From a virus (Duplodnaviria > Heunggongvirae > Uroviricota > Caudoviricetes), in IMG/VR virus record IMGVR_UViG_2703718798_000005: a DNA stretch of 49,477 nt, one strand, 5' to 3'. A program made the position numbers and the translations under genes. The notes under the pieces were generated by a model. It was not told the origin of the DNA, searched no databases, and saw nothing but the letters and a program-made list of their open reading frames with translations. Numbering within the stretch: the first letter of the stretch is position 1; every line of letters begins with the position of its first letter. Shown piece by piece: positions 1,067-45,441 of the stretch.

Positions 1067-3172
1067 ATGAGTGAAGGACCAGGCGGGCCACAGGGAGCGA
1101 CCGCAGGCGGTACGCTGGCAATGCGAATGCTGTCACAGCAGGCGATGGTCGCCAGCCAGATGAAACGGGCAGCCAACGACAAAGCCATTGCACAGATGTT
1201 GGCATCAAAAAAGTCTGGCTCCCCCGCCGCCAGGCTGGGCGATGAAATTCAGCACAAGAGTTTTTTGGGGGCGCTGGCAGGGGCCGTGCTGGGGGCGATA
1301 GTGACCATCGCAGAAGGTTGCCTGATTATGGCCGCCTGTGCCACCGGCCCTTATGCGCTGGTTCTGGTGCCTGCGCTGATGTATGCCAGCTATAAGGCGA
1401 GTGATTATGTGGAGGAGAAACAGAACCAGCTTGAATCATGGATAAACAGCTTTTGTGACACGGACGGCGCCATCAATACCGGTTCTGAAAACGTAAAAAT
1501 TAACGGAAAGCCAGCAGCCCGTGCAGCCGTCACCCTTCCCCCTCCTCCCCCACCTGGAGCAATACCTGAAGTCCCACAGGGGGAACCCTCATGGGGTGAT
1601 ATTGCCACTGACCTGCTTGAATCGGCAGCGGAAAAAGCAGTACCACTGGCGAAGGCCTGGGGGAACGCTGTTATCACCCTGACGGACAGCAATGCCAGTT
1701 TTATGGATCGCGTCAGTGCAGGCGCATCGCTTCTGTTTCCCAGCGGCCCGGTATTAATGGAATTTGCCACGATGGTGGGCGGGCGTGGCGAAATCAAAAA
1801 AGATGTGGATTTCCCGGAAGCCGGTGAGGACACGGCGCTCTGCGACAAGGAGAACAAACCACCGAGGATAGCCCAGGGCAGCAGCAACGTCTTTATCAAC
1901 AATCAGCCTGCCGCGCGCCAGGGGGACAAACTGGAGTGCAGTGCGGCGATCGTGGAAGGTTCGCCGGACGTCTTTATTGGGGGTGAGCAGGTCACCTATC
2001 TGGATATCCAGCCGGAGTTCCCGCCATGGCAGAGAATGATCCTGGGAGGAATAACGATAGCCAGCTATCTTCTGCCGCCAGCAGGACTGCTGGGAAAACT
2101 GGGGAATCTGGCGAAACTGGGCAAACTGGGAAACCTGCTGGGGAAAAGCGGAAAGCTGCTGGGCGCAAAACTCGGCGCGTTGCTGGGGAAAACAGGTAAG
2201 TCGTTAAAAAGTATTGCCAATAAAGTCATCAGATGGGTAACAGATCCTGTCGATCCGGTAACCGGCGCGTACTGCGACGAACGTACCGACTTCACCCTGG
2301 GCCAGACCCTCCCCCTCTCCTTCACCCGTTTCCACAGTTCGGTACTGCCACTGCATGGCCTGACGGGCGTGGGCTGGAGTGACTCCTGGAGCGAATACGC
2401 CTGGGTGCGTGAACAGGGAAACCGGGTGGATATCATCAGCCTGGGAGCCACGCTGAACTTCGCCTTCGACGGTGAAAGTGATACGGCGGTTAACCCGTAT
2501 CACGCCCAGTACATTCTGCGCCGCCGTGATGATTATCTGGAGCTGTTCGACAGGGATGCACTGAGCAGCCGCTTCTTTTATGACGCCTTTCCGGGAATGC
2601 GTCTGCGCCACCCGGTGACTGACGATACCAGCGATGACCGCCTGGCACACAGCCCCGCAGACCGGATGTACATGCTGGGCGGGATGAGCGACACCGCCAG
2701 CAACCGCATCACGTTTGAGCGCGACAGCCAGTACCGGATCACGGGTGTCAGTCACACCGACGGGATCCGGCTTAAACTGACGTACCACGCCAGCGGCTAC
2801 CTGAAAGCCATTCACCGCACGGATAACGGCATACAGACGCTGGCGACCTACGAACAGGATGCGCGGGGGCGGCTGACAGAAGCGGATGCGCGGCTGGACT
2901 ACCACCTGTTTTATGAGTACGACGCTGCGGACCGGATCATCCGCTGGTCCGATAACGACCAGACGTGGAGCCGTTTCACCTACGATGAACAGGGCCGGTG
3001 CGTGACCGTCACCGGGGCGGAGGGCTATTACAACGCCACGCTGGACTATGGGGACGGCTGCACCACCGTGACGGACGGCAAGGGCGCTCACCGTTATTAC
3101 TATGATCCTGACGGCAATATTCTGCGGGAAGAAGCGCCGGACGGCAGCACCACCACGTATGAATGGGTGTAA
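1067..3172 (+). pseudogene. rhs: rhs T6SS effector, 5' portion (prePAAR motif, TM helices, PAAR domain, first Rhs repeats), truncated by prophage insertion
   Basis: 701 aa ORF: AARLGDEIQH prePAAR-type motif, hydrophobic helices, PAAR-like segment (NVFINNQPAARQGDKLECSAAIVEGSPDVFIGG), YDxxGR-type repeats; stops two codons into the prophage left end; reading frame continues at about 42661. Confidence 0.8.
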
Positions 3173-12829: not shown

Positions 12830-13019
12830 TCTACCCGCTGGATGGGCGCGGCCACTAATGGCCAGGAAGCATCATTTTTTTAAAACAGGCGAAAATATCA
12901 GTATATGTGGACGGTGGTTATATCTGGCTCATAATCGCGAGCCGGATACATTTGAAAGCCCTGATGACTGTGCCGAATGCCGCAGAAGAGTGAATAAGGA
13001 GAAAGATAATGGACAATAG
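12822..13019 (+). CDS. Small hypothetical protein with Cys pairs
   Basis: 65 aa; ICGRW ... CAEC could form a small zinc-binding site; weak. Confidence 0.3.
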   Translation: MNSLPAGWARPLMARKHHFFKTGENISICGRWLYLAHNREPDTFESPDDCAECRRRVNKEKDNGQ

Positions 13020-13305
13020 TTCTCTGTTGTTCTGGTGCTTATATATCACATCCTTTTTCGGCGCATTTGTTATTACCCGGTGGTTATGTCGAAAAATCAT
13101 CTGCTTTTTTGATAAAAGACATCCGGTTGAACGGGCGGCTGATGCGCTCATTCAGCAGGCCATTGTGTTATATAGCGGTGAATTTTTCTGCCGGATAACA
13201 ACCAGAGATGGCTGGCACATAATGATTATTCCACCAACACACCATGCCCGGTGGGATGAGGCAGAAAAGGCTTTCCATGTCCGTAAAAAGGTAAATACGG
13301 TATGA
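13009..13305 (+). CDS. Small hypothetical protein, predicted membrane helix
   Basis: 98 aa; hydrophobic N-terminal segment LLFWCLYITSFFGAFVI. Confidence 0.3.
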   Translation: MDNSSLLFWCLYITSFFGAFVITRWLCRKIICFFDKRHPVERAADALIQQAIVLYSGEFFCRITTRDGWHIMIIPPTHHARWDEAEKAFHVRKKVNTV

Positions 13306-13811
13306 GAGGAAAACTGATATCCGCCATTCATGTGGCAAAGCGCGAGCTTGCCCTGGATGATGAGACTTATACATCCGCGCTGCTGGCAGCCACCGGCAAA
13401 ACCAGCTGCCGGGATATGTCACCGGATGAGTTATCCCGCGTGCTGGATGTTTTCAAAAAACGCGGTTTTAAAGTGCGTCAGAACCCGGTTAACCGGGCCT
13501 TAAAACCGGGTACGGTGACCGCCAAAATTCGCGCCATCTGGAAGGTGATGCACCGGCAGGGCTTTATCACCGATGGTGCGGAAACCGCCCTTAACCGCTG
13601 GGTGAAATCGCAGACGGCCGCGCAGAACGGCAGCGAAGGTGTGGCAAACTGGCAGTGGCTGGAGCAACACCCCGCCCTGGCCTCAGATGTGCTGGAGCGT
13701 CTCAAGCGATGGCACCGCCGCAAAATGCTGGCCGCGATGGGAATGCCCGAACGCACGCTGATGGGGTATGACGCCGTTTGCAGGCAGTATGAAAAATCAC
13801 TTCCCCGTTAA
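13302..13811 (+). CDS. GemA/gp16-like protein (DUF1018 family), putative
   Basis: 169 aa; N-terminal LISAIHVAKRELALDDETYTSALLAATGKTSCRDMSPDEL pattern recalled from Mu gp16 homologs; last gene before a terminator. Confidence 0.55.
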   Translation: MRGKLISAIHVAKRELALDDETYTSALLAATGKTSCRDMSPDELSRVLDVFKKRGFKVRQNPVNRALKPGTVTAKIRAIWKVMHRQGFITDGAETALNRWVKSQTAAQNGSEGVANWQWLEQHPALASDVLERLKRWHRRKMLAAMGMPERTLMGYDAVCRQYEKSLPR

Positions 13812-13814
13812 CTC

Positions 13815-13848
13815 CAAATCCCGCCACAACGCGGGATTTTTATTTTAA
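13815..13848 (+). terminator. Rho-independent terminator after the early operon
   Basis: ATCCCGC-CACAAC-GCGGGAT hairpin followed by TTTTTATTTT. Confidence 0.55.
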
Positions 13849-13880
13849 ACTTACCGGGAACGCGAGAACCGGAGGCTGAT

Positions 13881-14306
13881 ATGGCAGAAACTCAGATGAG
13901 CATGTTTGGTGGTGACAGTGAGCAACTGCACGCCCTTATCGACCGCCTTGATGACATCCCTGATGATGTTCTCAAAAAGAACTGGCCGCGGACCCTGTCA
14001 GAACTGGTTGAAGTCACCGGCGCAGAACTTCAGCGTCAGGGGATTGAGCCGGTACTGGCCGGTAAACTGGCACGCAAGGTGGCTGCGGCTCAGGCAGCCT
14101 ATATGGGCGGACGGGGTTATTACCTGCCGGTCGGGGAATCTCTCTTTGCCGAGCTGCGAAACAATGAGATATTTTCGCGCTGGGACCGGGGCGAGAAAAT
14201 TGAATCCCTTCGCCGCCATTACCGGATGTCAGAAACCCAGATTTATACCGTCATACGTGAACAGCGCCGTCTGCATCTGGCAAGAACGCAACCGCCACTT
14301 TTCTGA
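13881..14306 (+). CDS. Mor/C-family transcriptional activator (middle/late gene activator)
   Basis: 141 aa; C-terminal HTH-like LRRHYRMSETQIYTVIREQRR; lies between the early terminator and the lysis genes as in Mu. Confidence 0.6.
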   Translation: MAETQMSMFGGDSEQLHALIDRLDDIPDDVLKKNWPRTLSELVEVTGAELQRQGIEPVLAGKLARKVAAAQAAYMGGRGYYLPVGESLFAELRNNEIFSRWDRGEKIESLRRHYRMSETQIYTVIREQRRLHLARTQPPLF

Positions 14307-14377
14307 TATTCCGCAAAGCCTGCCGCCTTTCCTTCACCGTTACGCTGACTCAGAGAACATCATGAGACAGCGTAACA

Positions 14378-14878
14378 ATGCCAAAACTCCCCGCACCACT
14401 GCGTAAAAAGCTGATTGCCCTTGTTCTGGCCGGTGCCGGGACGTTCACGATTGCCACGCATTACACCGGTTACTGGGAAGGGAAAGAAAACTCCACGTAT
14501 ATCGATCCCACCGGTACACCCACCATCTGTTACGGCCATACCGGCCCGGATGTGAAACCGGGTATGACCCTGACGGATGAAGAATGTCTGAAACTGCTGG
14601 AAAAGGACATGAAATGGGCCTTTGCGGCCATTGATCGGCGTGTTCAGGTGCCGCTTACCCGTGGTCAGACGGTGGCGCTGGCTTCGTGGATCTTCTGGGC
14701 CGGTGAAACGAACTTTCGCAACTCCACGCTTCTGCGCCTGATCAATGCCGGACAGATGCCCGCGTCCTGTAAGCAGTATATCCGCTGGATTTATTCAAAG
14801 GGGGTGAAACTTCCCGGTCTTGAGGCCCGCCGTTCGGCGGATGAATGGTTATGTCGCTACGACTTGCCGAAAGTCTGA
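14378..14878 (+). CDS. SAR-type endolysin (lysozyme, GH24-like)
   Basis: 166 aa; N-terminal weakly hydrophobic signal-anchor (LIALVLAGAGTFTIA) followed by YIDPTGTPTICYGHT lysozyme motif. Confidence 0.85.
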   Translation: MPKLPAPLRKKLIALVLAGAGTFTIATHYTGYWEGKENSTYIDPTGTPTICYGHTGPDVKPGMTLTDEECLKLLEKDMKWAFAAIDRRVQVPLTRGQTVALASWIFWAGETNFRNSTLLRLINAGQMPASCKQYIRWIYSKGVKLPGLEARRSADEWLCRYDLPKV

Positions 14879-15341
14879 ACCGCTTCTGGCGACCGCTCAT
14901 GATAGCGCTGCTGTGTGCGGTACTGCTGTTACGGGGTGTCCTGTGGCTGCGGTGAATAATGCCTTACCGGCCCTGATTGCCGGGGCGTGCATGGCGGCGC
15001 TGGGGATTATCGCTGTACTGGTTGCCGCGATATGGGGAATGCACCAGAAGACGCAGCGCCTTGAAGACAATAATCAGGTGCTTGTGCGTGAGCGGGATGA
15101 GGCGCGTCAGGTGCTGGCAAATCAGCAGCATACCCTGCAACTCATTTCACAAATCAGTGAGGCGGTCACGAATGAAAAGCAACAGAACATTCAGCACAGC
15201 GAGGAGCAGCAGAGCGTTGTCCGCCGGTCGCTGGCAGCAGTGCCTGCGGCCTCTGTCCTTGTTCCTGATGATGTGGCTGACCGGGTGCGCCGGGCCGTCT
15301 GTGAAATACGTGCCTGTGAAGCCGGTGCCGATCCCCGCTGA
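14841..15341 (+). CDS. i-spanin (Rz-like), putative; start uncertain
   Basis: TM helix (ALPALIAGACMAALGIIAVLVAAIW) followed by a Gln/Glu-rich coiled coil; overlaps the o-spanin frame. Confidence 0.5.
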   Translation: MNGYVATTCRKSEPLLATAHDSAAVCGTAVTGCPVAAVNNALPALIAGACMAALGIIAVLVAAIWGMHQKTQRLEDNNQVLVRERDEARQVLANQQHTLQLISQISEAVTNEKQQNIQHSEEQQSVVRRSLAAVPAASVLVPDDVADRVRRAVCEIRACEAGADPR

Positions 15342-15543
15342 ATGGCTGGCTGACTGCCTGGTCCCTCCTGCGCCGGAGCCGTTCACGTTTGGGGCATCGG
15401 TCACTTACAACCTGCAACTGCTGGCGGTGATCAAGAACTGCAACGTGGATAAGGCCAGTATTCGTCGTCTGGAGGCGCGGCGACAACATGAATTTACTGA
15501 TATGGCCGGAACGCCTGCTGTTCCGGCAGGAAAGACGAAGTAA
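15172..15543 (+). CDS. o-spanin (Rz1-like outer-membrane lipoprotein), putative; start may be the TTG at about 15217
   Basis: Lipobox LTGC after a hydrophobic stretch, Pro-rich mature part; starts within the 3' end of the i-spanin gene in another frame. Confidence 0.5.
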   Translation: MKSNRTFSTARSSRALSAGRWQQCLRPLSLFLMMWLTGCAGPSVKYVPVKPVPIPAEWLADCLVPPAPEPFTFGASVTYNLQLLAVIKNCNVDKASIRRLEARRQHEFTDMAGTPAVPAGKTK

Positions 15544-15553
15544 GGAAAAAGGT

Positions 15554-15781
15554 ATGGATGATTCAGATCGTGCTCAGGCTGTGATGGAGCGGGGATCAGA
15601 ACGCGCCCTTTGTAACCGGCTGACACGTAAGCGCCGGGCAATGGATGCTCCGGGCAGACGTGTCTGCGCGGACTGTGGCGGAGAGATCCCCGCCGCACGT
15701 CTTGTTGCTGTGCCGGATGCCATCCGTTGTGTGAACTGCCAGAACATCATGGAGGCCCGTCATGTGGGTCAGCATCGTTAA
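15554..15781 (+). CDS. TraR/DksA-family C4 zinc-finger protein
   Basis: Start at internal ATG 15554 (RBS AAGGAAAAAGG); CADCGGEIPAARL...RCVNCQ zinc-finger pattern. Confidence 0.7.
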   Translation: MDDSDRAQAVMERGSERALCNRLTRKRRAMDAPGRRVCADCGGEIPAARLVAVPDAIRCVNCQNIMEARHVGQHR

Positions 15782-16070
15782 AGATTATGTTGTGCCGATC
15801 CTTTCGGCGACGGCAACCGCTGGCGGGATATTCATGGCGCTGATGCGCAAAACGTTTGTCCCCCGCGAGGCCTTTGAAAAACTCTCCGACCGCGTTGAGA
15901 AGGTGGAAACCCGCCTGTCGTCACTGCCGACAGAAGCCGAGGTCAACCGTCTGAATGTGGAAATCGTGACCCTGCGGGGTGAACTGAAAACCACGAACGC
16001 CACGCTCCGCTCTGTCTCCTATCAGAACGAACTGCTGCTGGAGCAGGCTGTAAGGAAAAAAACGCAATGA
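15762..16070 (+). CDS. Small membrane protein with coiled coil (candidate lysis-associated releasin-like protein)
   Basis: 102 aa; N-terminal TM helix (VVPILSATATAGGIFMALM) then coiled coil; position downstream of endolysin and spanins. Confidence 0.4.
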   Translation: MWVSIVKDYVVPILSATATAGGIFMALMRKTFVPREAFEKLSDRVEKVETRLSSLPTEAEVNRLNVEIVTLRGELKTTNATLRSVSYQNELLLEQAVRKKTQ

Positions 16071-16357
16071 GTGATTTCATTACTGAAGATCAGCGTCTGG
16101 TCATTCTGCGGTCGCTGGCAGATTACAACGGTGAACTGGGTGAATCCGTGCTCCAGGACTGTCTGGATGATTACGGCCACCGCGTGTCCCGCGACACCGT
16201 TCACACCCACATTGCCTGGCTTGCCGAGCAGGGACTGGTGCGCAAACGCGTTCTGATTAACGGTTATTTCATCGCAGAGCTGACCGGCCGGGGGCAGGAT
16301 GTGGCGGAAGGCCGCGCCAGTGTTCCGGGTGTGAAGAAACCACGCGCAAGGGGGTAA
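16067..16357 (+). CDS. Hypothetical protein preceding terminase genes
   Basis: 96 aa ORF, translationally coupled. Confidence 0.45.
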   Translation: MSDFITEDQRLVILRSLADYNGELGESVLQDCLDDYGHRVSRDTVHTHIAWLAEQGLVRKRVLINGYFIAELTGRGQDVAEGRASVPGVKKPRARG

Positions 16358-16359
16358 CG

Positions 16360-16941
16360 ATGGACAAGCCGACGCGTGGTCGTGTACGCAAGGTGGATTT
16401 GCTCCCCGACAGCATCCGTAAGCCGCTGCTGGAAATGCTGCGTGAAAAACGTCTGACGCAGGTCCAGATCCGCGAGGAAATCAACCGTCTGATCCGCGAG
16501 GCAGGCCTGCCGGAAGAGCAGCAGCTTTCACCGGCGGCCATCAGCCGGGAAGCCTCCCGTAATGAGCTGATTGCCCGTAACCTGCGTGATTTACGCGAGC
16601 AGACAAAAGCCATGATGGCCGAACTGGGAGACAAGCCAACCGGTGAAACCACAGCGCTGATTCTGGAGATGTCCCGCGCCCTGATGTACCGCCGTCTGCG
16701 TGCCGCGACCGAATCCCTGAACAGTGACAGCGACGTGGATATGCGTCTTATTAAGGACATCCTCCTGTCAGCACAGCGTGCGGAAAGTGCCGCCGAGCGC
16801 AGCATTAAGCGTGAAAAAGAAATCCGGGCCGCATTTGCTGAAGAGATGGCAAACGCCGTCACCGACGAGCTGCGCGGCGTGGACGGGATGAGTGAACAGC
16901 TTGAGTCCCGTATTAAGGGGATTCTGTTGGGTAAAGCCTGA
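16360..16941 (+). CDS. Mu gp27-like protein (putative terminase small subunit, DUF3486-like)
   Basis: 193 aa, charged and helical, immediately upstream of the large terminase. Confidence 0.55.
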   Translation: MDKPTRGRVRKVDLLPDSIRKPLLEMLREKRLTQVQIREEINRLIREAGLPEEQQLSPAAISREASRNELIARNLRDLREQTKAMMAELGDKPTGETTALILEMSRALMYRRLRAATESLNSDSDVDMRLIKDILLSAQRAESAAERSIKREKEIRAAFAEEMANAVTDELRGVDGMSEQLESRIKGILLGKA

Positions 16942-18605
16942 TGAATAACGCCGAAGAACTCTCCCCCTTACTGACGAATACCGTCTCCACCCGCAAAATT
17001 GATCTGGCCGGTGAAAAAGCCCTGCTGGGCGTGGATGTGCCGGACAGCCTTGATTTGCCCGGTGATATGCCGGTATTTCTGGATTATCAGGCCCGCTGGT
17101 TTGAGGATGAAAGCGAGGTCTGCATCGCGGAAAAATCCCGCCGCACCGGGCTTACCTGGGCGGAAGCCGGGCGTAACGTCATTACCGCCGCAAAGCCTAA
17201 GCGGCGTGGTGGCCGCAATGTGTTTTATGTGGGGTCAAAGCAGGAGATGGCGCTGGAATATATTTCTGCCTGCGCACTGTTCTCCCGTGCCTTTAACCAG
17301 CTGGCAGATGCTGATGTGTATGAGCAGACCTTCTGGGATCGGGATAAAAAAGAAGAAATTCTGACCTACATGATCCGCTTTCCGAACAGTGGATTCAAAA
17401 TTCAGGCACTGTCTTCCCGTCCGTCAAACCTGCGCGGCCTTCAGGGGGATGTGGTGATTGATGAAGCCGCGTTCCACGAGTCACTGGATGAGCTTCTCAA
17501 GGCGGCAATGGCGCTCACCATGTGGGGCGCGCGCGTGCGTATTATCTCCACGCATAACGGCGTCGATAATCTGTTTAATCAGTACATTCAGGAAGCCCGC
17601 GAGGGGCGCAAGGATTACAGCGTCCACCGCATTACCCTGGATGATGCCATTGCGGACGGGCTGTACCGTCGTATCTGTTATGTCACCGGCCGCGAATGGT
17701 CACCGGAAAGCGAGCAGAAGTGGCGTGATGATCTCTACAAAAACGCCCCGACCCGTGAGGATGCCGACGAGGAATACGGCTGTATCCCGAAAAAATCCGG
17801 CGGTGCCTATATTCCTCACGCGCTTATTGAAATGGCGATGCTCCGCGACATCCCGATTCTGACGTTTGAAGCCCCGGACGACTTCATCAGCCGTGCCGCA
17901 TGGCTGCGTGAATCGGAGGTTTTAACCTGGTGTGAAGAACATTTAAAACCGCTTTTAGAGGCGTTAAATCCCCGTTCCCGCTTCAGCTTCGGGGAAGACT
18001 TTGCCCGCACCGGTGACCTCTCCTGCTTTGTGCTGCTGGAAATCACTGAATCCCTGGCAAAACGCGAGGTGTTTCGCGTGGAGCTGCGCAACCTGCCGTA
18101 TGCCCAGCAGGAGCAGGTGATGATGTACATCCTGACCCGCGTTCCGGCGCTGGTCGGTGCGGCGTTCGACGCCACCGGTAACGGCGGCTATCTGGCCGAA
18201 GCCGCGCTGCTGGCCTTTGGCCCGGACATCATCGACTGCGTGATGTTATCGCCGAAGTGGTACGGCGAGTGGATGCCAAAACTGAAGGCCGAGTTTGAGG
18301 ATCAGAATATCCTCGTCGCCCGCCATCAGACCACGCTTGATGATTTGCGCCATGTGAAGGTGGTGAACGGTATCCCGCAAATTGACAAGGGGCGTACGAA
18401 GGACCAGAACGCAACGGCTGTGAACGCCCGCCGCCATGGCGATTTTGCCGTGGCGCTCTGTATGGCAAACCGGGCGTCATACATGGAGGGCTTCATCCTG
18501 GATGAATCAGCCTGTCAGGCGCTGCCGGAGCGGTCGCGGGCCATGGAGGGCGGTTATCGTGATGACGATGAGGCATATCATGAATTTGATCGGGGGTGCT
18601 GGTAG
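16941..18605 (+). CDS. Terminase large subunit
   Basis: 554 aa; position and size; acidic ATPase-like motif (VVIDEAAF). Confidence 0.8.
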   Translation: MNNAEELSPLLTNTVSTRKIDLAGEKALLGVDVPDSLDLPGDMPVFLDYQARWFEDESEVCIAEKSRRTGLTWAEAGRNVITAAKPKRRGGRNVFYVGSKQEMALEYISACALFSRAFNQLADADVYEQTFWDRDKKEEILTYMIRFPNSGFKIQALSSRPSNLRGLQGDVVIDEAAFHESLDELLKAAMALTMWGARVRIISTHNGVDNLFNQYIQEAREGRKDYSVHRITLDDAIADGLYRRICYVTGREWSPESEQKWRDDLYKNAPTREDADEEYGCIPKKSGGAYIPHALIEMAMLRDIPILTFEAPDDFISRAAWLRESEVLTWCEEHLKPLLEALNPRSRFSFGEDFARTGDLSCFVLLEITESLAKREVFRVELRNLPYAQQEQVMMYILTRVPALVGAAFDATGNGGYLAEAALLAFGPDIIDCVMLSPKWYGEWMPKLKAEFEDQNILVARHQTTLDDLRHVKVVNGIPQIDKGRTKDQNATAVNARRHGDFAVALCMANRASYMEGFILDESACQALPERSRAMEGGYRDDDEAYHEFDRGCW

Positions 18606-22104: not shown

Positions 22105-22280
22105 TTGTTTAAGGTATGCAAATGCATTACCTTACCCCCTTCAGGCGCGTGTCGTGATTTTCTAACCTGAATTTAACGGGCTTTAAAATCTGCGTGAAGC
22201 GCCTTTGTATTTTTCCCCTGAAAGCACTTCCTGAAATCCCGCAAAACCCGCCCTGAAAATTCCCGGCCTATGCTGCCGGA
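22105..22280. promoter_or_regulatory. Central G-I intergenic region: candidate late promoter and possible gyrase-site-like element
   Basis: 176 bp non-coding gap in an otherwise tightly packed late region; CCTGAA(A) at about 22166, 22217, 22230, 22252; imperfect palindrome AAGGTATGCAAATGCATTACCTT at about 22110. Confidence 0.35.
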
Positions 22281-23405
22281 ATGAAGACGAAAAACACGCC
22301 CAAACTTGCTTATGCCATTCTGAATGCCATCAGCCTGTCCGCAGACGGGGACGGTGACTGGTGTCAGATCATGCCAGCCGGTCGGGTAAAGGCCCGTGAC
22401 GGTCGCCCGGAAAAACCGGCCGAGGGCTGGCTGATCAACCATGCAGCCGTTGAGCGCATGGTCTCCCGTGTTGTGGCGCTCAATCAGCCGGTGAAAATTG
22501 ACTACAACCACCAGACCCTGATTGAGGGACATCCGGCACCGGCTGCCGGTTTTGTGATGGCCTCACCGGAGAATTTTCGCTTCAGTGAAGAGCGAGGTTT
22601 CGAGGTGCGCCCGAAGTGGAACCCTCCGGCCCTTGAACATCTGCGTAATAACGAATTCCCCTGGTTTTCACCGGTGATTGGCTATGACGAGAGCACCGGC
22701 GAACCTGTCGAACTTCGGATGCTGGCTATTACCGGTGACCCCGGTCTGACCGGCATGAATCCTGTCGCCGCACTGTCGGCGGATGACCTTTATAACGCCT
22801 TAAACCCTCCTTTAAAGGATACCTCCATGAATGAGCAATTACGCCAGTTGCTGACGGCGCTCGGTCTGACCGTGGCTGACGGTGACGAATTTACGCCGGA
22901 GCTGGGCACGGCAGCGCTGTCTGCCCTCACCGGGATCAAAACCCGTGCGGATGCACACGACAACCTGAAAACACAGGTCGCCAGTCTGTCGGCAGAGCTG
23001 GAAACTGCAAAAGGCACACCGGCTGGCGGCAGTATTGACCTGACGAAATACGTGCCCGTTGAAACGTATAACGCCCTGCGTACCGAATACGTTGCGCTGT
23101 CGGCGCAGCACGGCAGCACCACGCTGGAGCAGTTGCTGGACAAGGCCGAGTCCGAAGGACGCATCTTCAAAAGTGAACGCGGCTATCTGGAACAACTGGG
23201 CGGGCAGATTGGCGTGGCGGCACTCTCTGCACAGCTTGACGCCCGCCAGCCGGTTGCGGCCCTGACCGGCCTTCAGACCGACACCGTGACCGTGCCGGAT
23301 AAAAAGACTGCCACCGCTGTGCTGTCGGCTGAAGATATCGCGGCCGCCAAACTGCTGGGTAAAACCGAAGCCGAGTTCCTGAAAATGAAAGAGGAAATGC
23401 AATAA
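22281..23405 (+). CDS. Mu I-like head protease/scaffold protein
   Basis: 374 aa; position upstream of the major head gene; Ala/Leu-rich scaffold-like C-terminal half. Confidence 0.7.
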   Translation: MKTKNTPKLAYAILNAISLSADGDGDWCQIMPAGRVKARDGRPEKPAEGWLINHAAVERMVSRVVALNQPVKIDYNHQTLIEGHPAPAAGFVMASPENFRFSEERGFEVRPKWNPPALEHLRNNEFPWFSPVIGYDESTGEPVELRMLAITGDPGLTGMNPVAALSADDLYNALNPPLKDTSMNEQLRQLLTALGLTVADGDEFTPELGTAALSALTGIKTRADAHDNLKTQVASLSAELETAKGTPAGGSIDLTKYVPVETYNALRTEYVALSAQHGSTTLEQLLDKAESEGRIFKSERGYLEQLGGQIGVAALSAQLDARQPVAALTGLQTDTVTVPDKKTATAVLSAEDIAAAKLLGKTEAEFLKMKEEMQ

Positions 23406-35689: not shown

Positions 35690-36600
35690 TGTTCCATGTT
35701 GATAATAATTCCGGCGTGGCGAATATGCCTGAACTGGCTCCGGCGCAGAGTAATACCACCACCTGGTTTACCGAAGGTGACGGACAAAAAGGTATCAGCT
35801 GGATTGGTCAGGACTGGCTGAATATTCTCCAGGCCGAACTGCTGAATATTCTGGCTGAAGCCAGTATTCAGCCGGATAAGGCGCAGTTAAACCAGCTTAC
35901 GCTGTCCATTAAAGCCATTATCGCTGCGAATGCCTTTTCCCGGAAAAACAACCTGAAAGAAATTGCTGATGCCGGTGCGGAAGCCCAGCGTCTGGCCCGT
36001 GGTTATCTTGGTCTGGGGACGCTTGCCACAAAAAACAGTCTTGGTCCCGCTGACGTTAATGCCCTGGCGAAGGATCAGAACCTTGCCGACCTGGAGAATG
36101 CGGAAACCGCCCGTAATAATCTGGATGTTTACAGCAGGAGCGAAGGTGATAACCGTTACCTGCGCAGGGACCAGAATGGCGCGGATATCCAGGACAAAGG
36201 AACCTTTATCGATAACCTCGGTTTACGGGAAACGGTAAATAAGGCTGCTGATGCCCTGCCATCGGCTGGAACCGCCGTGGCAGCAAACAGACTCGCCACC
36301 CCAAGAAATATTAATGGTGTTCCTTTTGACGGAACGCTGGATATCAACATCACGTCAGGAATGACGCAGTCAACCGCAGATGGCCGGTATGTACAGAATG
36401 TTCAGCTTGGAGCACAGAGCTATCATTCACCCGGAGGCAATGAAATGTCATGGAATTACAGCGCACCTTCCGGTTGTATGCTTTCCGGTATTAACGTGCA
36501 GGAAACCGGCTCCCGGTCTGCGGACAATATCGGTGGGGTCTATTATCGCCCGGTTCAGATTTATATTAATAATACCTGGAGAACGGTAAGTTCAGTGTAA
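35689..36600 (+). CDS. Tail fibre protein S (constant part plus currently fused variable tip)
   Basis: Start at ATG 35689 overlapping the preceding stop; crosses the left recombination site at about 36206-36231; last roughly 120 aa lie inside the invertible segment. Confidence 0.8.
   Translation: MFHVDNNSGVANMPELAPAQSNTTTWFTEGDGQKGISWIGQDWLNILQAELLNILAEASIQPDKAQLNQLTLSIKAIIAANAFSRKNNLKEIADAGAEAQRLARGYLGLGTLATKNSLGPADVNALAKDQNLADLENAETARNNLDVYSRSEGDNRYLRRDQNGADIQDKGTFIDNLGLRETVNKAADALPSAGTAVAANRLATPRNINGVPFDGTLDINITSGMTQSTADGRYVQNVQLGAQSYHSPGGNEMSWNYSAPSGCMLSGINVQETGSRSADNIGGVYYRPVQIYINNTWRTVSSV
36206..36231. repeat. Left recombination site (gix-like) inside the tail fibre gene
   Basis: TTATCGATAACCTCGGTTTACGGGAA, close to the Mu gix sequence as recalled. 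Confidence 0.7.
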
Positions 36601-37277: not shown

Positions 37278-37649
37278 TTAAATACTTGCAGCGGATACCC
37301 AATGCCCATTAATACAATATTGTATCTGTCTGTAATAAACACGGTCATCACCACCACGCATTTCCCAGTCTCCGTCAGTCTTAAAACCGGTAATCACATT
37401 TCCTGATGACAGGGAGTAATTATATTCCAGTCCGCCGCTTAATGCCTGCGCTCCCAGTCTTACCCCTGTAACATAACGCTGATTGGCCGTTGATTCCGGC
37501 ATTCCTGACGTAATGTTTATATCCTGCGTGCCGTCAAAGGCGACACCATTGATTCTGCGGGCATTTGCCAGCCTGCTTGCTGCAACAGCCGTACCGTTTG
37601 ATGGCAGGGCATTCGCGGCCCTGTTTACCGTATCCCGTAAACCGAGGTT
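37278..37649 (-). CDS. Alternative tail-fibre C-terminal segment (promoterless until inversion)
   Basis: Minus-strand frame reads NLGLRDTVNRAANALPSNGTAVAASRLA..., parallel to NLGLRETVNKAADALPSAGTAVAANRLA... of the expressed tip; a stop lies immediately outside the right recombination site. Confidence 0.7.
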   Translation of the reverse strand, partial: NLGLRDTVNRAANALPSNGTAVAASRLANARRINGVAFDGTQDINITSGMPESTANQRYVTGVRLGAQALSGGLEYNYSLSSGNVITGFKTDGDWEMRGGDDRVYYRQIQYCINGHWVSAASI

Positions 37650-37657
37650 TCAGGGAT
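37632..37657. repeat. Right recombination site (gix-like), inverted
   Basis: ATCCCGTAAACCGAGGTTTCAGGGAT, inverted relative to the left site. Confidence 0.7.
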
Positions 37658-37711
37658 GCCGTATATCTACTTTAAAAGGCTTTTCCACCTCTTTTTAAGG
37701 AAGGTAAATAC

Positions 37712-38272
37712 ATGCTGATTGGCTATATACGCGTATCAACAAATGACCAGAACACCGGTTTACAAAGAAATGCGCTGGAATGTGCAGGATGTGAGCAGAT
37801 TTTTGAAGACAAAATGAGTGGTAAAACGACACAGCGGCCGGGACTGAAGCGGGCACTGAAGAAACTAAAACCCGGTGACACGCTGATGGTCTGGAAACTG
37901 GACAGGCTGGGGCGCAGTATGCGCCACCTTGTTGCGCTGACAGATGAATTACAGCAACAGGGGATAAATTTTCGTAGTCTTACTGACAACATTGATACGT
38001 CAACCCCCATGGGGCGCTTCTTTTTTCACATAATGGGTGCGCTGGCAGAAATGGAGCGTGAATTAATTGTCGAACGGACACGGGCTGGTCTTGCAGCTGC
38101 CCGTGAAAGGGGACGAACCGGCGGCAGACCCCGCCGTCTCACGCAGGAACAATACGAGCAGGTCGGGCGTTTACTGGCCGGGGGTGTCAGTCGAAGACAG
38201 GTGGCACTTATTTTTGATATCGGTCTTTCAACCCTTTATCGTTATTATCCTGCGAGCGTTTCGGAAAAATAA
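37712..38272 (+). CDS. gin: Serine DNA invertase (Gin/Hin/Cin family)
   Basis: 186 aa; N-terminal MLIGYIRVSTNDQN catalytic-Ser motif; C-terminal HTH; adjacent to the invertible segment. Confidence 0.9.
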   Translation: MLIGYIRVSTNDQNTGLQRNALECAGCEQIFEDKMSGKTTQRPGLKRALKKLKPGDTLMVWKLDRLGRSMRHLVALTDELQQQGINFRSLTDNIDTSTPMGRFFFHIMGALAEMERELIVERTRAGLAAARERGRTGGRPRRLTQEQYEQVGRLLAGGVSRRQVALIFDIGLSTLYRYYPASVSEK

Positions 38273-38371: not shown

Positions 38372-40411
38372 ATGACGTCCAAATGGGTTCAACTATCATC
38401 AATGCCCGGAAACTTTACTGTTAAAGTTTCCGGTGGTACAGCGGCATTTCTTGAGGCTCCCTTTCCTCCGGCCGAAACAAAAGGAGGAATGACATTTGCT
38501 GACTGTCTCATCAGTTTTAATACACGGGATTGCCTGTGGGTAAGGCCAGTATCCGGTGATCCGAGTGTGGAAATTACCGGAGCGGGTATTGGTGCGGTCA
38601 TTCCGTTAAGTGCTGATGTTGCCGGTACTGCTGAACCGTCAGACTGGGATAATGCTGAAACACATACCCGTCCGTCAGGAAATGAAACTGCTTCCAGCTC
38701 CCCTTCCTGGTATTACGTGGTGGTTCTTGCTGGTCAGTCAAACGGTATGGCTTACGGTGAAGGTCTGCCACTGCCGGAGACATATGACCGCCCCGAACCG
38801 CGTATTATGCAGTTAGCCCGTCGCAGTACAGTCACGCCGGGAGGTAAAGCCTGTCAGTATAACGACATCATTCTGGCCGACCACTGTCTGCATGATGTGC
38901 AGGATATGAGTGGAAAAAATCACCCGAAAGCGGATGTGGCTAAAGGGCAATATGGCACCGTGGGTCAGGGGCTTCACATTGCCAAAAAACTGCTGCCGTT
39001 TATTCCGGCAGATGCGGGGATTCTGCTGGTTCCCTGCTGCCGTGGTGGTTCTGCATTCACGGCGGGTGCTGACGGCACGTACAGTGACAGCACGGGTGCT
39101 TCAGAGGACTCAGCCCGCTGGGGTGTGGATAAGCCGCTGTATAAGGACTTAATCAGCCGGACAAAAGCGGCACTGGCGAAGAACCCGAAAAACCGCCTGC
39201 TTGCTGTGGTGTGGATGCAGGGCGAGTTTGATATTGATGCGAAGCCGACGGAGCATTCTGCGCTGTTTCTGGCGATGGTGGAAAAATTCCGCGCAGACCT
39301 GGCTGAACAGGCGGAACAGTGTACCGGTGGCAGTGCTGCTGGCGTTCCGTGGATTTGTGGCGATACCACGTATTTCTGGAAACAGAAAAATGAACCAGCA
39401 TACCAGGCAATCTATGGCGGCTACAAAAACAAAACAGATAAAAACATTCATTTCGTTCCATTAATGACAGATGAAAATGGCGTGAATGTACCCACCAACA
39501 ATCCGGCAGAAGACCCGGATATTGAATCCATTGGTTATTACGGCTCAACGTGGCGTAACAGTGCCGCTACCTGGACATCTGCGGACCGGGCCAGCCATTT
39601 CAGTGCCTGGGCGCGCCGGGGTATTATTTCTGACCGTCTGGCCACGGCTGTTCTGACTCATGCAGGGCGAACCACAGTAAAAGCCGATGTTCCATCTTCT
39701 GAAACTGAAGCACCAGTGCCGTCACCTTCAGAAACTGAAGCAGTAACCACAACACTGCTGTCTTACCGTGTCAGTGAGTCAGAAGGAAATCTGAAAGCCC
39801 AGGGCTGGGAGCCGGCTGGCGGTAAAGCTGAAATTATCAGTGATGCAGGAGGCACAGGTGGTAAGGCAATGAAACTGACCAAGGAAACAGGTAAATCATC
39901 CTGGTATCTGGATCATGATGCCGGTACTGGTGCTGAACTGCTGAAAAATGGTGGTTTAATCAGTTGTCGTTTTAAAGTACCTGGCGACCTGGTGGCAAAC
40001 CAGTATGTCATGGCGCTTTACTGGCCGGTTTCCTCTCTGCCGCAGGGTGTCACCCTGACAGGGGATGCAGGGAATAATCTGCTGGCATCGTTCTACATCC
40101 AGACAGACGCAAAAGACCTGAATGTGATGTACCACAATGCAAAAGTGGCAACAAATAACCAGAAACTGGGAACCTTTGGTGCATTTGATAATGAATGGCA
40201 TACGCTGGCCTTCCGTTTTGCAGGAAATAACAGCCTTCAGGTTATTCCGGTTATTGATGGTCAGGATGGTGCCGCGTTTACCCTGACGCAGTCACCAGTA
40301 GGAACTTTCCCGGTGGACAAACTCCGCGTAACGGATATCACCAAAAATGCAACTTACCCGGTGCTGATTGACAGCATTGTGGTGGAAGTGAAAAAAGCGG
40401 TAACAGAATAA
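38372..40411 (+). CDS. Cargo protein: SASA/SGNH-type esterase domain (sialate O-acetylesterase-like, NanS-p-like) with a lectin-like C-terminal domain
   Basis: 679 aa; YYVVVLAGQSNGMAYGEG block resembles the GQSN motif of DUF303/SASA esterases; C-terminal 200 aa may be a ConA-like beta-sandwich; no counterpart at this position in Mu. Confidence 0.55.
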   Translation: MTSKWVQLSSMPGNFTVKVSGGTAAFLEAPFPPAETKGGMTFADCLISFNTRDCLWVRPVSGDPSVEITGAGIGAVIPLSADVAGTAEPSDWDNAETHTRPSGNETASSSPSWYYVVVLAGQSNGMAYGEGLPLPETYDRPEPRIMQLARRSTVTPGGKACQYNDIILADHCLHDVQDMSGKNHPKADVAKGQYGTVGQGLHIAKKLLPFIPADAGILLVPCCRGGSAFTAGADGTYSDSTGASEDSARWGVDKPLYKDLISRTKAALAKNPKNRLLAVVWMQGEFDIDAKPTEHSALFLAMVEKFRADLAEQAEQCTGGSAAGVPWICGDTTYFWKQKNEPAYQAIYGGYKNKTDKNIHFVPLMTDENGVNVPTNNPAEDPDIESIGYYGSTWRNSAATWTSADRASHFSAWARRGIISDRLATAVLTHAGRTTVKADVPSSETEAPVPSPSETEAVTTTLLSYRVSESEGNLKAQGWEPAGGKAEIISDAGGTGGKAMKLTKETGKSSWYLDHDAGTGAELLKNGGLISCRFKVPGDLVANQYVMALYWPVSSLPQGVTLTGDAGNNLLASFYIQTDAKDLNVMYHNAKVATNNQKLGTFGAFDNEWHTLAFRFAGNNSLQVIPVIDGQDGAAFTLTQSPVGTFPVDKLRVTDITKNATYPVLIDSIVVEVKKAVTE

Positions 40412-40447
40412 AAAAATCCCGCCGGTCATGATATGGCTGGCGGGAGC
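40412..40447. terminator. Hairpin flanked by an A-tract (terminator-like, better oriented for the minus strand)
   Basis: AAAAAAA-TCCCGCC...GGCGGGA; on the minus strand the hairpin is followed by TTTTTTT. Confidence 0.4.
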
Positions 40448-40557
40448 TACCTAACCCATAAAGGAAAATAAAAATACTCCCGAAGGAGTGGTTATCAGTC
40501 GCTTCGATGTTTTTACCCGATAACGAATTATGTAGTCAATATCAAAGGTAAGGTTAT

Positions 40558-40740
40558 ATGACATTCGTTCATACAATGCTGCTTTATTTCTGCGCTGTGG
40601 TCAGTGCGTTATATCTGGTGAGCGGCGGTTATAAGGTCATCAGAAATTATATTCGCCGTAAAATTGATGATGCGGCAGCTGAAAAACTCAGTAAAACAGC
40701 ACAGGCACCGTCATCCCCAAACGACCCGACCCCGCTCTGA
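40558..40740 (+). CDS. Small predicted membrane protein (cargo region)
   Basis: 60 aa; N-terminal TM helix LLYFCAVVSALYLVSGG. Confidence 0.35.
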   Translation: MTFVHTMLLYFCAVVSALYLVSGGYKVIRNYIRRKIDDAAAEKLSKTAQAPSSPNDPTPL

Positions 40741-40775
40741 TAACGGGGCAATATACCTGCAAAAGGAGAATATTC

Positions 40776-41021
40776 ATGCCAGAGATTAAAGGCACGGTTA
40801 CTGAAGAGCTTGTCAAACAGGCACTTTATTCTGAAGAAGTGAACCGCGTGCTGAAGGCGCAGGTTCGCAAGGATTTTGAGGCACAAATCGACGCATATGT
40901 TGATGAAGTGCTGGCCCGAATGGTTGGCCGTTCTCCGGCTGAAAACAGCACGGAAAATGATCCTCAACCCGTAGAGCAACCAGAGCCGGTTCAGCCCGGA
41001 ACTGACGGTACTATGATGTAA
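40776..41021 (+). CDS. Small acidic hypothetical protein (cargo region)
   Basis: 81 aa ORF with RBS AAAGGAGAA. Confidence 0.4.
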   Translation: MPEIKGTVTEELVKQALYSEEVNRVLKAQVRKDFEAQIDAYVDEVLARMVGRSPAENSTENDPQPVEQPEPVQPGTDGTMM

Positions 41022-42659: not shown

Positions 42660-42660
42660 A

Positions 42661-45441
42661 TGGGATGAATACCATCACCTGCTGGCCCGCCACTCCCCTG
42701 CCGGGCGGGTGGAGAAATTTGAATACAACGCCGCACATGGTCAGTTAAGCTGTTATACGGCGGCAGACGGCGCGGAGTGGCAGTACTGCTATGATGAGCG
42801 CGGCCTGCTCAGCAACATCACCGACCCTGCCGGGCAGACGTGGACGCAGCAGTGTGATGAACGCGGCCTGCCGGTGAGTCTGGTGTCGCCACAGGGCGAA
42901 GAGACCCGGCTGGCATACACCGCACAGGGGCTGCTGTCGGGAATATTCCGCCAGGATGAACGGCACCTGGGCATAGAGTACGACCACCACAACCGGCCGG
43001 AAACACTCACCGACGTGATGGGCCGTGAACACCACACCGAATACAGTGGTCACGACCTGCCGGTGAAGATGCGCGGCCCCGGCGGTTAGTCAGTGCGGTT
43101 GCAGTGGCAGCAGCACCATAAACTGAGCGGCCTTGAGCGGGCAGGAACCGGCGCAGAAGGATTCCGCTATGACCGCCACGGCAACCTGCTGGCGTACACG
43201 GACGGTAACGGCGTTGTCTGGACAATGGAATACGGCCCGTTTGATTTGCCGGTGGCGCGAACGGACGGTGAAGGCCACCGCTGGCAGTACCGCTACGATA
43301 AAGACACGCTGCAACTGACAGAAGTCATTAACCCGCAGGGCGAGTCTTATCTTTATATTCTGGACAACTGTGGCCGGGTGACGGAAGAACGTGACTGGGG
43401 CGGCGTGGTCTGTCGTTACCGCTATGACGCCGATGGCCTGTGTACCGCCAGGGTTAACGGCCTGGAGGAAACTATCCTCTACAGCCGGGACGCCGCAGGC
43501 CGCCTGGCAGAAATCATCACGCCGGAAGGCAAAACGCAGTATGCGTATGACAAATCCGGCAGGCTGACGGGTATCTTCAGCCCGGACGGCACATCACAGC
43601 GCACCGGCTATGATGAACGCGGGCGGGTGAATGTCACCACTCAGGGCCGACGGGCCATTGAATACCACTACCCCGACGAACACACCGTCATCCGCTGTAT
43701 CCTGCCACCGGAAGATGAACGCGACAGACACCCCGATGAATCCCTGCTGAAAACCACGTACCGTTATAACGCCGCCGGAGAACTGACGGAGGTCATTCTG
43801 CCGGGGGATGAGACGCTGACGTTCAGCCGTGATGAGGCGGGACGTGAAGTGCTCCGGCACAGTAACCGGGGTTTTGCCTGTGAGCAGGGCTGGAATGCAG
43901 CCAGCCAGCTTGTCACCCAGCGCGCCGGATTTTTCCCGGAGGAAACCACATGGGGCGGGCTGCTCCCCTCACTGGTACGGGAGTACCGTTACGACAGCGC
44001 GGGCAATGTGTCGGCTGTCACCAGCCGGGAAGATTACGGACGGGAAACACGGCGGGAGTACCGGCTGGACCGGAACGGTCAGGTCACGGCGGTGACAGCC
44101 TCAGGCACCGGGCTGGGCTATGGCGAAGGCGATGAGTCCTATGGCTATGACAGTTGTGGCTACCTGAAGGCGCAGTCTGCGGGCAGGCACCGGATAAGTG
44201 AAGAGACTGACCAGTATGCCGGAGGCCACCGGCTGAAACAGGCCGGAAACACGCAGTATGACTATGACGCCGCAGGCCGGATGGTCAGCCGCACAAAACA
44301 CCGTGACGGCTACCGCCCGGAAACAGAGCGGTTCCGGTGGGACAGCCGGGACCAGCTGACCGGGTATTGCAGCGCACAGGGTGAACAGTGGGAATACCGC
44401 CACGACGCCAGCGGCAGACGAACAGAGAAACGCTGTGACAGGAAGAAAATCCGCTTCACGTACCTGTGGGATGGCGACAGTATTGCGGAAATCCGGGAAT
44501 ACCGCGATGATGAACTGTACAGCGTACGGCACCTGGTGTTTAACGGCTTTGAGCTGATAAGCCAGCAGTGCAGCCGGGTACGGCAGCCGCACCCGTCCGT
44601 GGCCCCGCAGTGGGTGACGCGAACGAATCATGCGGTGAGCGACCTGACGGGCCGCCCGCTGATGCTCTTTAACAGTGAAGGTAAAACCGTCTGGCGGCCG
44701 GGGCAGACCAGCCTGTGGGGGCTGGCACTCAGCCTGCCCGCAGACACCGGCTACCCGGACCCGCGCGGGGAGCGGGACCCGGAAGCGGACCCCGGCCTGC
44801 TGTATGCGGGACAGTGGCAGGATGCAGAATCGGGGCTGTGCTATAACCGGTTCCGGTACTACGAGCCGGAAACCGGGATGTACCTGGTGAGTGATCCGCT
44901 GGGGTTGCAGGGAGGGGAGCAGACTTACCGGTATGTGCCGAATCCTTGTGGGTATATCGATCCTTTGGGGCTGGCTATATGTCAGTTAGCCCGCTGGACG
45001 AAATGGGGGAGTGAGCAAAGCAACATATCTGATGTTTTGAACTCATTAGGGAATAGAGCACTTAAATATGCTAATGGTGATTGGATAAAATCAGAGGCTG
45101 CATTCAATAAATACATAAACATGATAAATAAAAGACTAGAATTAACAGGTAGTAAATTTAGAGTTGAGATTCAACCAGCCATAAAAAATGGAGAGCGAGT
45201 TCCTGCGACAACGAATGGACCATTTAAAGTAAATGGTAAGTGGACATCCGGCACTCATTATACAGGTGGTTCCAAACGTCTAGATGCCGGTATTATTGAT
45301 ATCACATCTCCTACAAACCAATATGGATTACATCCAGTTATTGAAGGATTTGATATAACACTTAATAAAACAAAACCATCAGCAGTGGATATATATTCAG
45401 ATGTGTTTGGTGGGATTGATATTAACGACATTCGGTTATAA
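42661..45441 (+). pseudogene. rhs: rhs effector, 3' portion (Rhs repeat core and C-terminal toxin tip), with in-frame TAG at 43087-43089
   Basis: Frame continues the 5' fragment; ORF track splits it into 42709-43089 and 43093-45441 around a TAG; DPLGL-type demarcation (YIDPLGLA) at about 44960; low-GC C-terminal tip of about 150 aa. Confidence 0.8.

Follow-up and report, generated by a model that had tools for sequence, protein, structure and literature searches.

A Mu-like lysis cassette with a SAR-type endolysin, a candidate releasin and an unannotated micro-ORF in an Escherichia coli prophage

The window analyzed here is the full 49,477-nucleotide stretch of IMG/VR virus record IMGVR_UViG_2703718798_000005, in which a Mu-like prophage carries a compact set of lysis genes at positions 14378-16070 (all positions are window coordinates, and all cassette features lie on the plus strand). 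The set comprises the gene for a GH24 muramidase of signal-anchor-release (SAR) type (lys), a short unannotated open reading frame (ORF) with a single transmembrane (TM) segment that we refer to as orf36, overlapping genes for an i-spanin and an o-spanin, and genes for a TraR-family C4 zinc-finger protein and for a DUF2730 protein that is a candidate releasin. A comparison with the Mu lysis genes, which a first-pass annotation made from the sequence alone had put forward as a check, uncovered gene-by-gene colinearity: the order Mor/C activator, lys, i-spanin, o-spanin, zinc finger, DUF2730, gp26-like, gp27-like parallels C-22-23-23.1-24-25-26-27 of Mu, with significant similarity to C, gp22, gp23, gp25, gp26, and gp27 (39, 39, 26, 34, 62, and 57% identity, respectively). 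All the features that the first-pass annotation had named were recovered at the positions it gave, and the scores for the Mor, lysozyme, LysC, TraR, and DUF2730 families all exceed their curated cut-offs. Judged by its sequence, the cassette belongs to the holin-less SAR endolysin/releasin kind already described in 2022 (Chamblee et al.). We interpret it as the lysis module that heads the late operon of a Mu-like (Sp18-type) prophage and that, by analogy, most likely works as it does in Mu.

What is the precedent? In Mu, gp22 is a SAR endolysin, gp23 and gp23.1 are the spanins, and there is no holin; gp25, the prototype of the DUF2730 family, is a membrane-tethered ‘releasin’ required for the release of gp22, and residues K6 and K7 of gp22, at the cytoplasmic edge of its SAR domain, confer this gp25 dependence (Chamblee et al. 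2022, PMC9239132). Every TM-protein candidate of Mu failed the holin test, and dinitrophenol (DNP) delayed lysis instead of triggering it (PMC9239132). As in Mu, the cassette described here opens the late operon, directly behind the C/Mor activator gene; further shared features are a lysozyme of the same type, with a SAR-like segment as well as a dibasic motif, overlapped spanins, the predicted topology of the DUF2730 protein, and the absence of a holin-like ORF adjoining lys. It differs in that its lysis proteins are only 26–39% identical to those of Mu, that a bona fide TraR-family protein sits at the gp24 position (Mu gp24 shares the zinc ribbon only), that an extra TM ORF of 34–36 aa lies between lys and the i-spanin gene, and that we found no gp19 or gp20 homologues and just one Mor-family gene near the cassette.

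The endolysin gene (14378-14878; 166 aa) was assigned through PF00959 (E=7e-37) and phrog_7 (E=1.2e-50), and its product is 39% identical to Mu gp22. The catalytic spacing reads E34-x8-D43-x5-T49, with E34, D43, and T49 invariant in alignment A2. At the N-terminus, MPKLPAPLRKKLIALVLAGAGTFTIATHY, the basic residues K3, R9, K10, and K11 precede a segment, L12-T27, that is weakly hydrophobic (Kyte-Doolittle mean 1.68, as compared to 2.64 for the TM segment of the i-spanin) and in which 9 of 16 residues are Ala, Gly, or Thr. The nearest solved structures are 3hde_A (E=1.2e-24), 3hdf_A, and 4zpu_A (RrrD); 3hde and 3hdf carry only the tool label ‘Lysozyme’, and we take them to be the SAR endolysin R of phage 21. 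As the alignment with these solved relatives begins at residue 5, it includes the N-terminal hydrophobic segment, which aligns with those of 3hde_A and Mu gp22, and the segment presumably stays uncleaved. The family assignment, the weakly hydrophobic L12-T27, and the match to solved relatives from residue 5 together are in keeping with the earlier proposal of an endolysin with a SAR-type N-terminus in place of a cleavable signal. In alignment A2, R9-K10-K11-L of the lysozyme stands opposite K7-L8-K9-A10 of Mu gp22; shifting the alignment by one column, by eye, places K10-K11-L over K6-K7-L of Mu.

The DUF2730 gene (15762-16070; 102 aa), preceded by GGAGG 7 nt 5′ of its ATG, is the fifth after lys when orf36 is counted. 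Its product matches PF10805 (E=7e-20; 71.4 bits against a cut-off of 24.9) over profile positions 3-101 of 102 and phrog_736 (E=8.6e-32), and is 34% identical to Mu gp25 over 93 aa (E=4.7e-17). The hydrophobic segment 10-28 is followed by R29 and K30, so that the positive-inside rule predicts an N-out/C-in topology with a cytoplasmic C-terminal domain, the same topology as that of gp25. AlphaFold2, supplied with ten close homologues, predicts helices 3-30, 35-54, and 58-101, the last two forming a hairpin (mean pLDDT, the model’s own confidence measure, 74; above 90 in the last helix), in line with the single TM helix and coiled coil noted in the first-pass annotation. Among homologues from E. 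coli, Shigella, Salmonella, and Serratia (70–88% identical), the most invariant part comprises the TM and juxtamembrane residues (S15, A16, T19-G21, I23-R29, F32, V33, R35, and E36 in alignment A3), and this pattern hints at a sequence-specific role within the membrane. The TM segment also abounds in Ala, Gly, Thr, and Ser and in this respect resembles a SAR domain. A sequence search returned no solved structural relative, and a BFVD fold search with the model gave no significant match. As a full-length DUF2730 member with similarity to gp25 and the same gene position, the protein supports the releasin-type reading proposed earlier for it; it combines the sequence type, the gp25 similarity, the predicted topology, and the gene position (in a transposable phage, at most five genes behind lys) that mark a releasin of DUF2730 type I.

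The two spanins complete the Mu-like lytic equipment. The i-spanin (Rz/LysB-like, ~132 aa; 14943-15341) matches phrog_214, a family of Rz-like spanins (E=4e-32), and Mu gp23 (26% identity, E=3e-5), and consists of a TM segment at the N-terminus and a periplasmic domain behind it. Its start is most likely GTG 14943 (alternatively GTG 14952), and not one of the TTG or GTG codons farther upstream: GTG 14943 aligns with the ATG starts of the homologues from Citrobacter and from locus L071, GGGG lies 6 nt 5′ of it, and upstream of it the ratio of nonsynonymous to synonymous substitution proportions (pN/pS) in the i-spanin frame exceeds 1. The o-spanin (15172-15543; 123 aa), an Rz1/LysC-like outer-membrane lipoprotein, matches PF23793 (LysC; E=3e-17) and phrog_3001 (E=7.8e-42) and resembles the 23.1 reading frame of Mu. 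It contains MMWLTGC with the lipobox L-T-G-C, whose Cys39 is encoded at 15286-15288, and most likely starts at ATG 15172, which would give a signal peptide of 38 residues; GAGG stands 5′ of this codon, and the N-terminus M(M)KSN is kept in the homologues from L007, L071, and L124, Citrobacter included. The first-pass annotation had described the two genes as overlapping, and this was borne out, with the o-spanin ATG inside the i-spanin gene. Since the o-spanin gene ends 202 nt beyond the end of the i-spanin gene, the architecture is of the overlapped and not of the embedded type. RefSeq (PGAP) records of identical prophages (L003) place the i-spanin, there called ‘endopeptidase’, at 14913 and lysC at 15301. 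Both starts look wrong, the latter because it lies 3′ of the lipobox cysteine and the former because the additional stretch is unconserved in the i-spanin frame.

The protein encoded between the spanins and the candidate releasin (15554-15781; 75 aa) scores 77.8 bits against TIGR02419, the TraR family of phages and conjugal plasmids (cut-off 59.7), matches PF01258 (E=7.7e-12) and phrog_54, and has the CxxC…CxxC arrangement at C38, C41, C59, and C62. Its residues 2-69 align with F-plasmid TraR as present in RNA-polymerase complexes (5w1s_M, 6n57_M), so that the TraR/DksA-like zinc finger recognized in the first-pass annotation proved to resemble TraR from end to end, D2 and D5 falling opposite both Asp residues of the N-terminal DEADEA of TraR. 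RNA polymerase is the target of TraR and of its phage homologues, lambda Orf73 among them, which inhibit promoters of rRNA and ribosomal-protein genes and raise phage yield; Orf73 D3A/D6A serves as an inactive, loss-of-function control (PMC9239242). Compared with these proteins, ours is of similar length (75 aa, against 72–79 aa in the solved TraR chains) and has the four zinc-binding Cys and an Asp at both acidic-tip positions, whereas its gene lies within a late lysis operon and theirs in an early (pL) or transfer operon. The protein is a probable secondary-channel binder of RNA polymerase and probably no lysis protein, and modulation of host transcription, as proposed earlier, would be a reasonable role. 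A TraR-like gene occupies the gp24 position in five of seven surveyed Mu-like loci, including loci whose gp26 and gp27 are more than 80% identical to those of Mu. A Pfam search with Mu gp24 gave no zf-dksA_traR match, and it took a profile-profile comparison to connect the zinc ribbon of gp24 with the TraR-like proteins (hhalign probability 86%, E=4.6e-6, 32 columns); gp24 may be a degenerate TraR. In the close Mu relatives L127 and L128, a full TraR-like gene stands at the position of gp24 (L001 3025-3219 in Mu).

Is the cassette truly devoid of a holin? On the coding strand of the prophage, a six-frame hydropathy scan and a second scan at lower threshold (62 non-nested plus-strand ORFs) revealed no ORF with two or more TM segments, none of the 16 candidate ORFs submitted matched a PHROG holin family, and homologues of the Mu membrane proteins gp19 and gp20 were not found in the prophage. 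The gene directly 5′ of lys is that of the Mor/C activator. To this extent the earlier statement that no canonical holin is evident stands. One ORF, 37483-37698, shows two hydrophobic stretches at the low threshold; it was discarded as a holin candidate, since it starts with TTG, lies in an invertible tail-fibre segment, and mirrors the minus-strand ORF 36156-36353, being an antisense frame of the repeated ends of fibre genes. We also surveyed 55 distinct loci that encode related lysozymes, the Mu-like class being defined by Mor upstream. All seven Mu-like loci have DUF2730 downstream and none has a TM ORF abutting the lys start; among the other 48 loci, DUF2730 is found downstream in none and a TM ORF abuts the lys start in 43. 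DUF2730 downstream and an ORF in the upstream holin position were hence mutually exclusive in this sample, as the releasin model predicts, which supports the releasin reading without proving it. A scan of genome contigs with the lysozyme yielded a single locus, in Citrobacter braakii.

Other SAR endolysin loci make a useful contrast. The lysozyme matches 3hde_A, 3hdf_A, and 4zpu_A from residue 5 and so resembles R21 of phage 21 and RrrD of DLP12; in the S21/R21 and RrrD systems, though, a pinholin gene lies directly 5′ of the endolysin gene, while here lys is preceded by the Mor/C activator gene and followed by DUF2730. With LysB/LysC of P2, the spanins share the overlapped gene architecture, and the o-spanin falls into Pfam family LysC (PF23793). 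In P2, a holin (Y) and LysA adjoin the endolysin, and neither has a counterpart in the cassette.

Between lys and the i-spanin gene lies orf36, missed by the first-pass annotation, which encodes 36 aa from ATG 14845 or 34 aa from ATG 14851, the start kept in all relatives, and ends at 14955. The peptide, MSLRLAESLNRFWRPLMIALLCAVLLLRGVLWLR (with both starts combined, M(VM)SLRLAESLNRFWRPLMIALLCAVLLLRGVLWLR), has a single hydrophobic segment. The ORF starts within the last codons of lys, its stop overlaps the start of the i-spanin gene, and its LRG codons supply the GGGG ribosome-binding site of the latter. It is intact in 21 distinct nucleotide versions, encoding 17 distinct peptides, from four lineages: its length is constant in the E. 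coli-type elements, the Citrobacter braakii-type elements (lysozyme 84% identical), and L071 (lysozyme 55% identical), and L124/L125 (lysozyme 49% identical) carry a 37-aa homologue at the same position. Over the 20 codons that overlap neither neighbour (Nei-Gojobori counts; small numbers, from related sequences), pN/pS in the orf36 frame is 0.24–0.37 in most comparisons, and 0.67 and 1.12 in the two comparisons with L071, the most divergent lineage. In the i-spanin frame over the same codons, five of seven comparisons give 2.7–5.8 and the remaining two 0.83–1.61, while the third frame is interrupted by stops. By this substitution pattern, orf36 is under purifying selection in its own frame, and we regard it as probably a translated gene. 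A programmed frameshift joining orf36 to the i-spanin gene was considered as well; the sequence holds no slippery heptamer.

orf36 is the only element of the cassette that neither the Mu paradigm nor any annotation had anticipated. It has no match in Pfam, PHROG, or NCBIfam and is not annotated by PGAP in the records examined. The 48-aa L071 version had no homologue in a collection of 5.8 billion protein clusters, exact look-ups of four variants returned nothing, and neither did a literature search for the peptide string. A tblastn search against phages retrieved only two Stx-phage records (Stx, Shiga toxin) that carry an inserted Mu-like phage, and DNA patterns back-translated from the peptide motif recovered the same lys-linked lineages only, from viral contigs (31 and 33 hits) and metagenome contigs (15). 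The ORF was found neither in Mu nor in four of the seven surveyed Mu-like loci. As for its function, the hydrophobic core between R16 and R30 (36-aa numbering) measures 13 residues and no charged C-terminal domain follows, so that orf36 falls short of the descriptive picture of a holin, namely a full TM domain together with a charged hydrophilic C-terminal domain. To our knowledge, 34–36 aa is also well below the size of any described holin. The peptide might regulate the tethered endolysin or the spanin, might perturb the membrane, or might mainly be a device for translational coupling. That it is a real inner-membrane peptide in lysis control, whether it sets the timing in the manner of a minimal holin or antiholin or by perturbing the membrane, or whether it regulates endolysin or i-spanin, strikes us as rather unlikely. 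Were this so, this Mu-like branch would have a lysis component that is absent from Mu and was never annotated, and the term ‘holin-less’ would need qualifying. A separate observation concerns four contigs of unrelated, non-Mu phages with a holin-position ORF and a SAR-type lysozyme (L168, L176, L177, and L180), which also have a single-TM ORF of 52–55 aa, dissimilar in sequence to orf36, either close to where the lysozyme gene ends or directly before an i-spanin-like gene; a small TM ORF around the lysozyme/i-spanin junction may be a recurrent gene position.

Several observations speak against a plain transfer of the Mu scheme to this cassette. Holin-associated SAR lysozymes in the survey also bear two to three basic residues at the N-terminus (for example MIKKRL and MSLKRRL), and the basic cluster alone is therefore no predictor of releasin dependence; the count of such residues does not separate Mu-like from holin-associated SAR lysozymes, and we dropped it. 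Mu gp24 is not recognisably TraR-like by Pfam, and Mu itself lacks orf36. In other Mu-like phages, cytoplasmic endolysins too are found together with DUF2730 proteins (PMC9239132), and the role of the family may be broader than SAR release. Finally, three single-TM ORFs are present on the coding strand, namely orf36 (14851-14955), 13009-13305, and a DUF1378 ORF (40558-40740), for which reason ‘holin-less’ is to be understood as inferred and not as shown.

These last ORFs lend themselves to a reading in which the cassette is not holin-less at all and a small single-TM protein (orf36 in the first place, else 13009-13305 or the DUF1378 ORF) acts as a minimal holin, pinholin, or depolarising peptide that times endolysin release. 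Such a role would suit the selection on orf36, its place inside the cassette with translational coupling to lys and the i-spanin gene, and the arginines flanking its hydrophobic core; the DUF1378 protein combines one TM segment with a charged C-terminal tail, and its family adjoins the pinholin gene in Stx phages. Yet the four Mu-like loci without orf36, like Mu, still lack any upstream TM ORF, the 13-residue core of orf36 is short and has no charged C-terminal domain behind it, 13009-13305 belongs to the early region, 5′ of a terminator-like hairpin, and in Mu the TM-protein candidates failed as holins and DNP brought delay in place of triggering. We consider this reading quite unlikely.

The second alternative concerns the DUF2730 protein, which would be no releasin here: the SAR lysozyme would escape spontaneously, and the DUF2730 protein would serve another late function, for example one tied to the gp26, gp27, and terminase genes. 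It could draw on the co-occurrence of the family with non-SAR endolysins, on the position of the gene at the edge of the packaging genes, where it overlaps the gp26-like gene, and on the lack of any solved or predicted structural relative that would hint at a mechanism. We nevertheless find it very unlikely, since the protein is of the same sequence type as gp25 over its full length, gp25 being required for gp22 release, since the lysozyme retains a dibasic motif at the SAR boundary, and since the most invariant part of the DUF2730 protein is its TM segment, suggesting a specific role in the membrane.

How might the Mu-like lysis module be switched on? The Mor/C-family late transcription activator (13881-14306; PF08765 Mor, E=2.8e-32; 39% identity to Mu C, E=2.5e-34) is the sole Mor-family gene found adjoining the cassette. 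Between gemA and this gene, directly after gemA, a terminator-like hairpin with a 9-bp stem and a T-run (13816-13839) is probably the terminator of the early operon, parting it from the Mor/C-family gene. At 14303-14346, before lys, an 18-bp box, CTGATATTCCGCAAAGCC, is followed after 20 nt by the −10-like TACGCT, making up a candidate activator-dependent, Plys-like late promoter. A second site at 22231-22274 (plus strand), in the intergenic gap 5′ of an ORF at 22281, shares the pattern CTGAwATyCCGCAAArCC, exactly 20 nt, and TAyGCT. Shuffled sequences gave no match to this pattern, which was itself derived from the same two sites. By analogy with Mu Plys and PI, the sites may be Mor/C-dependent late promoters, a proposal that we put forward as a lead only. 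A scan of 13700-17000 for sigma-70 consensus promoters was negative, as one would expect of late promoters that depend on an activator. At the other end, the genes for a gp26-like winged-helix protein (16067-16357; 62% identity to Mu gp26) and a gp27-like protein (16360-16941; 57% identity to Mu gp27), with family matches to NF050184 and PF11985, carry the cassette operon on into the packaging genes; 14378-16070 forms the beginning of the prophage late operon.

The prophage itself spans 39,492 bp (3168-42659) and is bordered by 5-bp direct repeats ATGGG (3163-3167 and 42660-42664), an intact target duplication. It is inserted into an rhs/PAAR toxin gene, with Rhs ORFs at 1067-3172 and 42709-45441 and the Rhs reading frame picking up again directly after the repeat. 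Its hallmark genes encode GemA, the Mor-family activator, Gp27, a large terminase-like ORF, a Gin-like invertase, Com, and Mom. Of 5426 complete E. coli genomes, 231 carry the cassette (14300-16100), at 90–99% identity and in up to four copies each, O157:H7 strains being among its carriers, and 13800-16400 is 99% identical to an ‘inserted Bacteriophage Mu-like phage’ annotated in two records of Stx-converting phages; to Mu, D108, and SfMu, the same region matches at the DNA level in the gp26 gene only. The Mu-like prophage Sp18 of O157 Sakai was judged apparently intact (PMC2669165), and we infer that the prophage in our window is of Sp18 type. Because the cassette is intact in 231 genomes, is multicopy in some, and sits in fresh insertions into Stx phages, the phage looks active. 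That the prophage is a decaying remnant whose cassette is recognisable but non-functional, as might be feared given the many defective prophages of Shiga-toxin-producing E. coli (PMC2669165), is extremely improbable in view of the intact cassette ORFs here and in those genomes, the recent insertions, the intact target duplication, and the verdict on Sp18.

Two further features of the prophage deserve mention. At its right end, directly preceding com/mom, an accessory module (38372-41021, plus strand) resembles the region 3′ of stx in Stx phages and encodes a NanS-p-like sialate O-acetylesterase (SASA + DUF6645), the DUF1378 protein, and a phrog_311 ORF; the DUF1378 protein (40558-40740, plus strand) has 60 aa, among them a single TM segment and a charged tail, and DUF1378 of Stx phages is located between nanS-p and the pinholin gene. 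Near-identical peptide strings on opposite strands (36156-36353, minus; 37483-37698, plus) flank a tail-fibre assembly gene, adjoined by the invertase gene (37712-38272); they are the inverted repeats of a host-range region that, like a G segment, is invertible.

Together, this suggests a lysis programme modelled on that of Mu. The Mor/C-family activator would switch on the late promoter directly 5′ of lys. The lysozyme would then be exported via its N-terminal SAR segment and remain tethered and inactive in the inner membrane, with the basic cluster R9-K10-K11 on the cytoplasmic side acting as the lock, as extrapolated from K6/K7 of Mu. By homology with gp25, the DUF2730 protein, N-out/C-in and with a cytoplasmic helical hairpin, would promote escape of the SAR segment, freeing active muramidase without a holin, upon which the i-spanin/o-spanin complex would break the outer membrane. 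The TraR-like protein, as another product of this late transcript, would bind host RNA polymerase and turn down ribosomal promoters, a contribution that would be transcriptional and not lytic.

If true, the cassette extends the holin-less, releasin-dependent scheme, so far tested in Mu only, beyond the close relatives of Mu, to a branch that represents a widespread, apparently active Mu-like prophage of pathogenic E. coli and is also found inside some Stx phages. For the automatic mining of lysis genes, the apparently wrong spanin starts in RefSeq and the missing micro-ORF are of relevance. This branch further offers natural variation with which the mechanism could be dissected: the lysozyme bears four basic residues at its N-terminus, the releasin homologue is most conserved in its TM segment, the gp24 position is taken by a genuine TraR-family protein, and a conserved micro-ORF stands between the lys and spanin genes.

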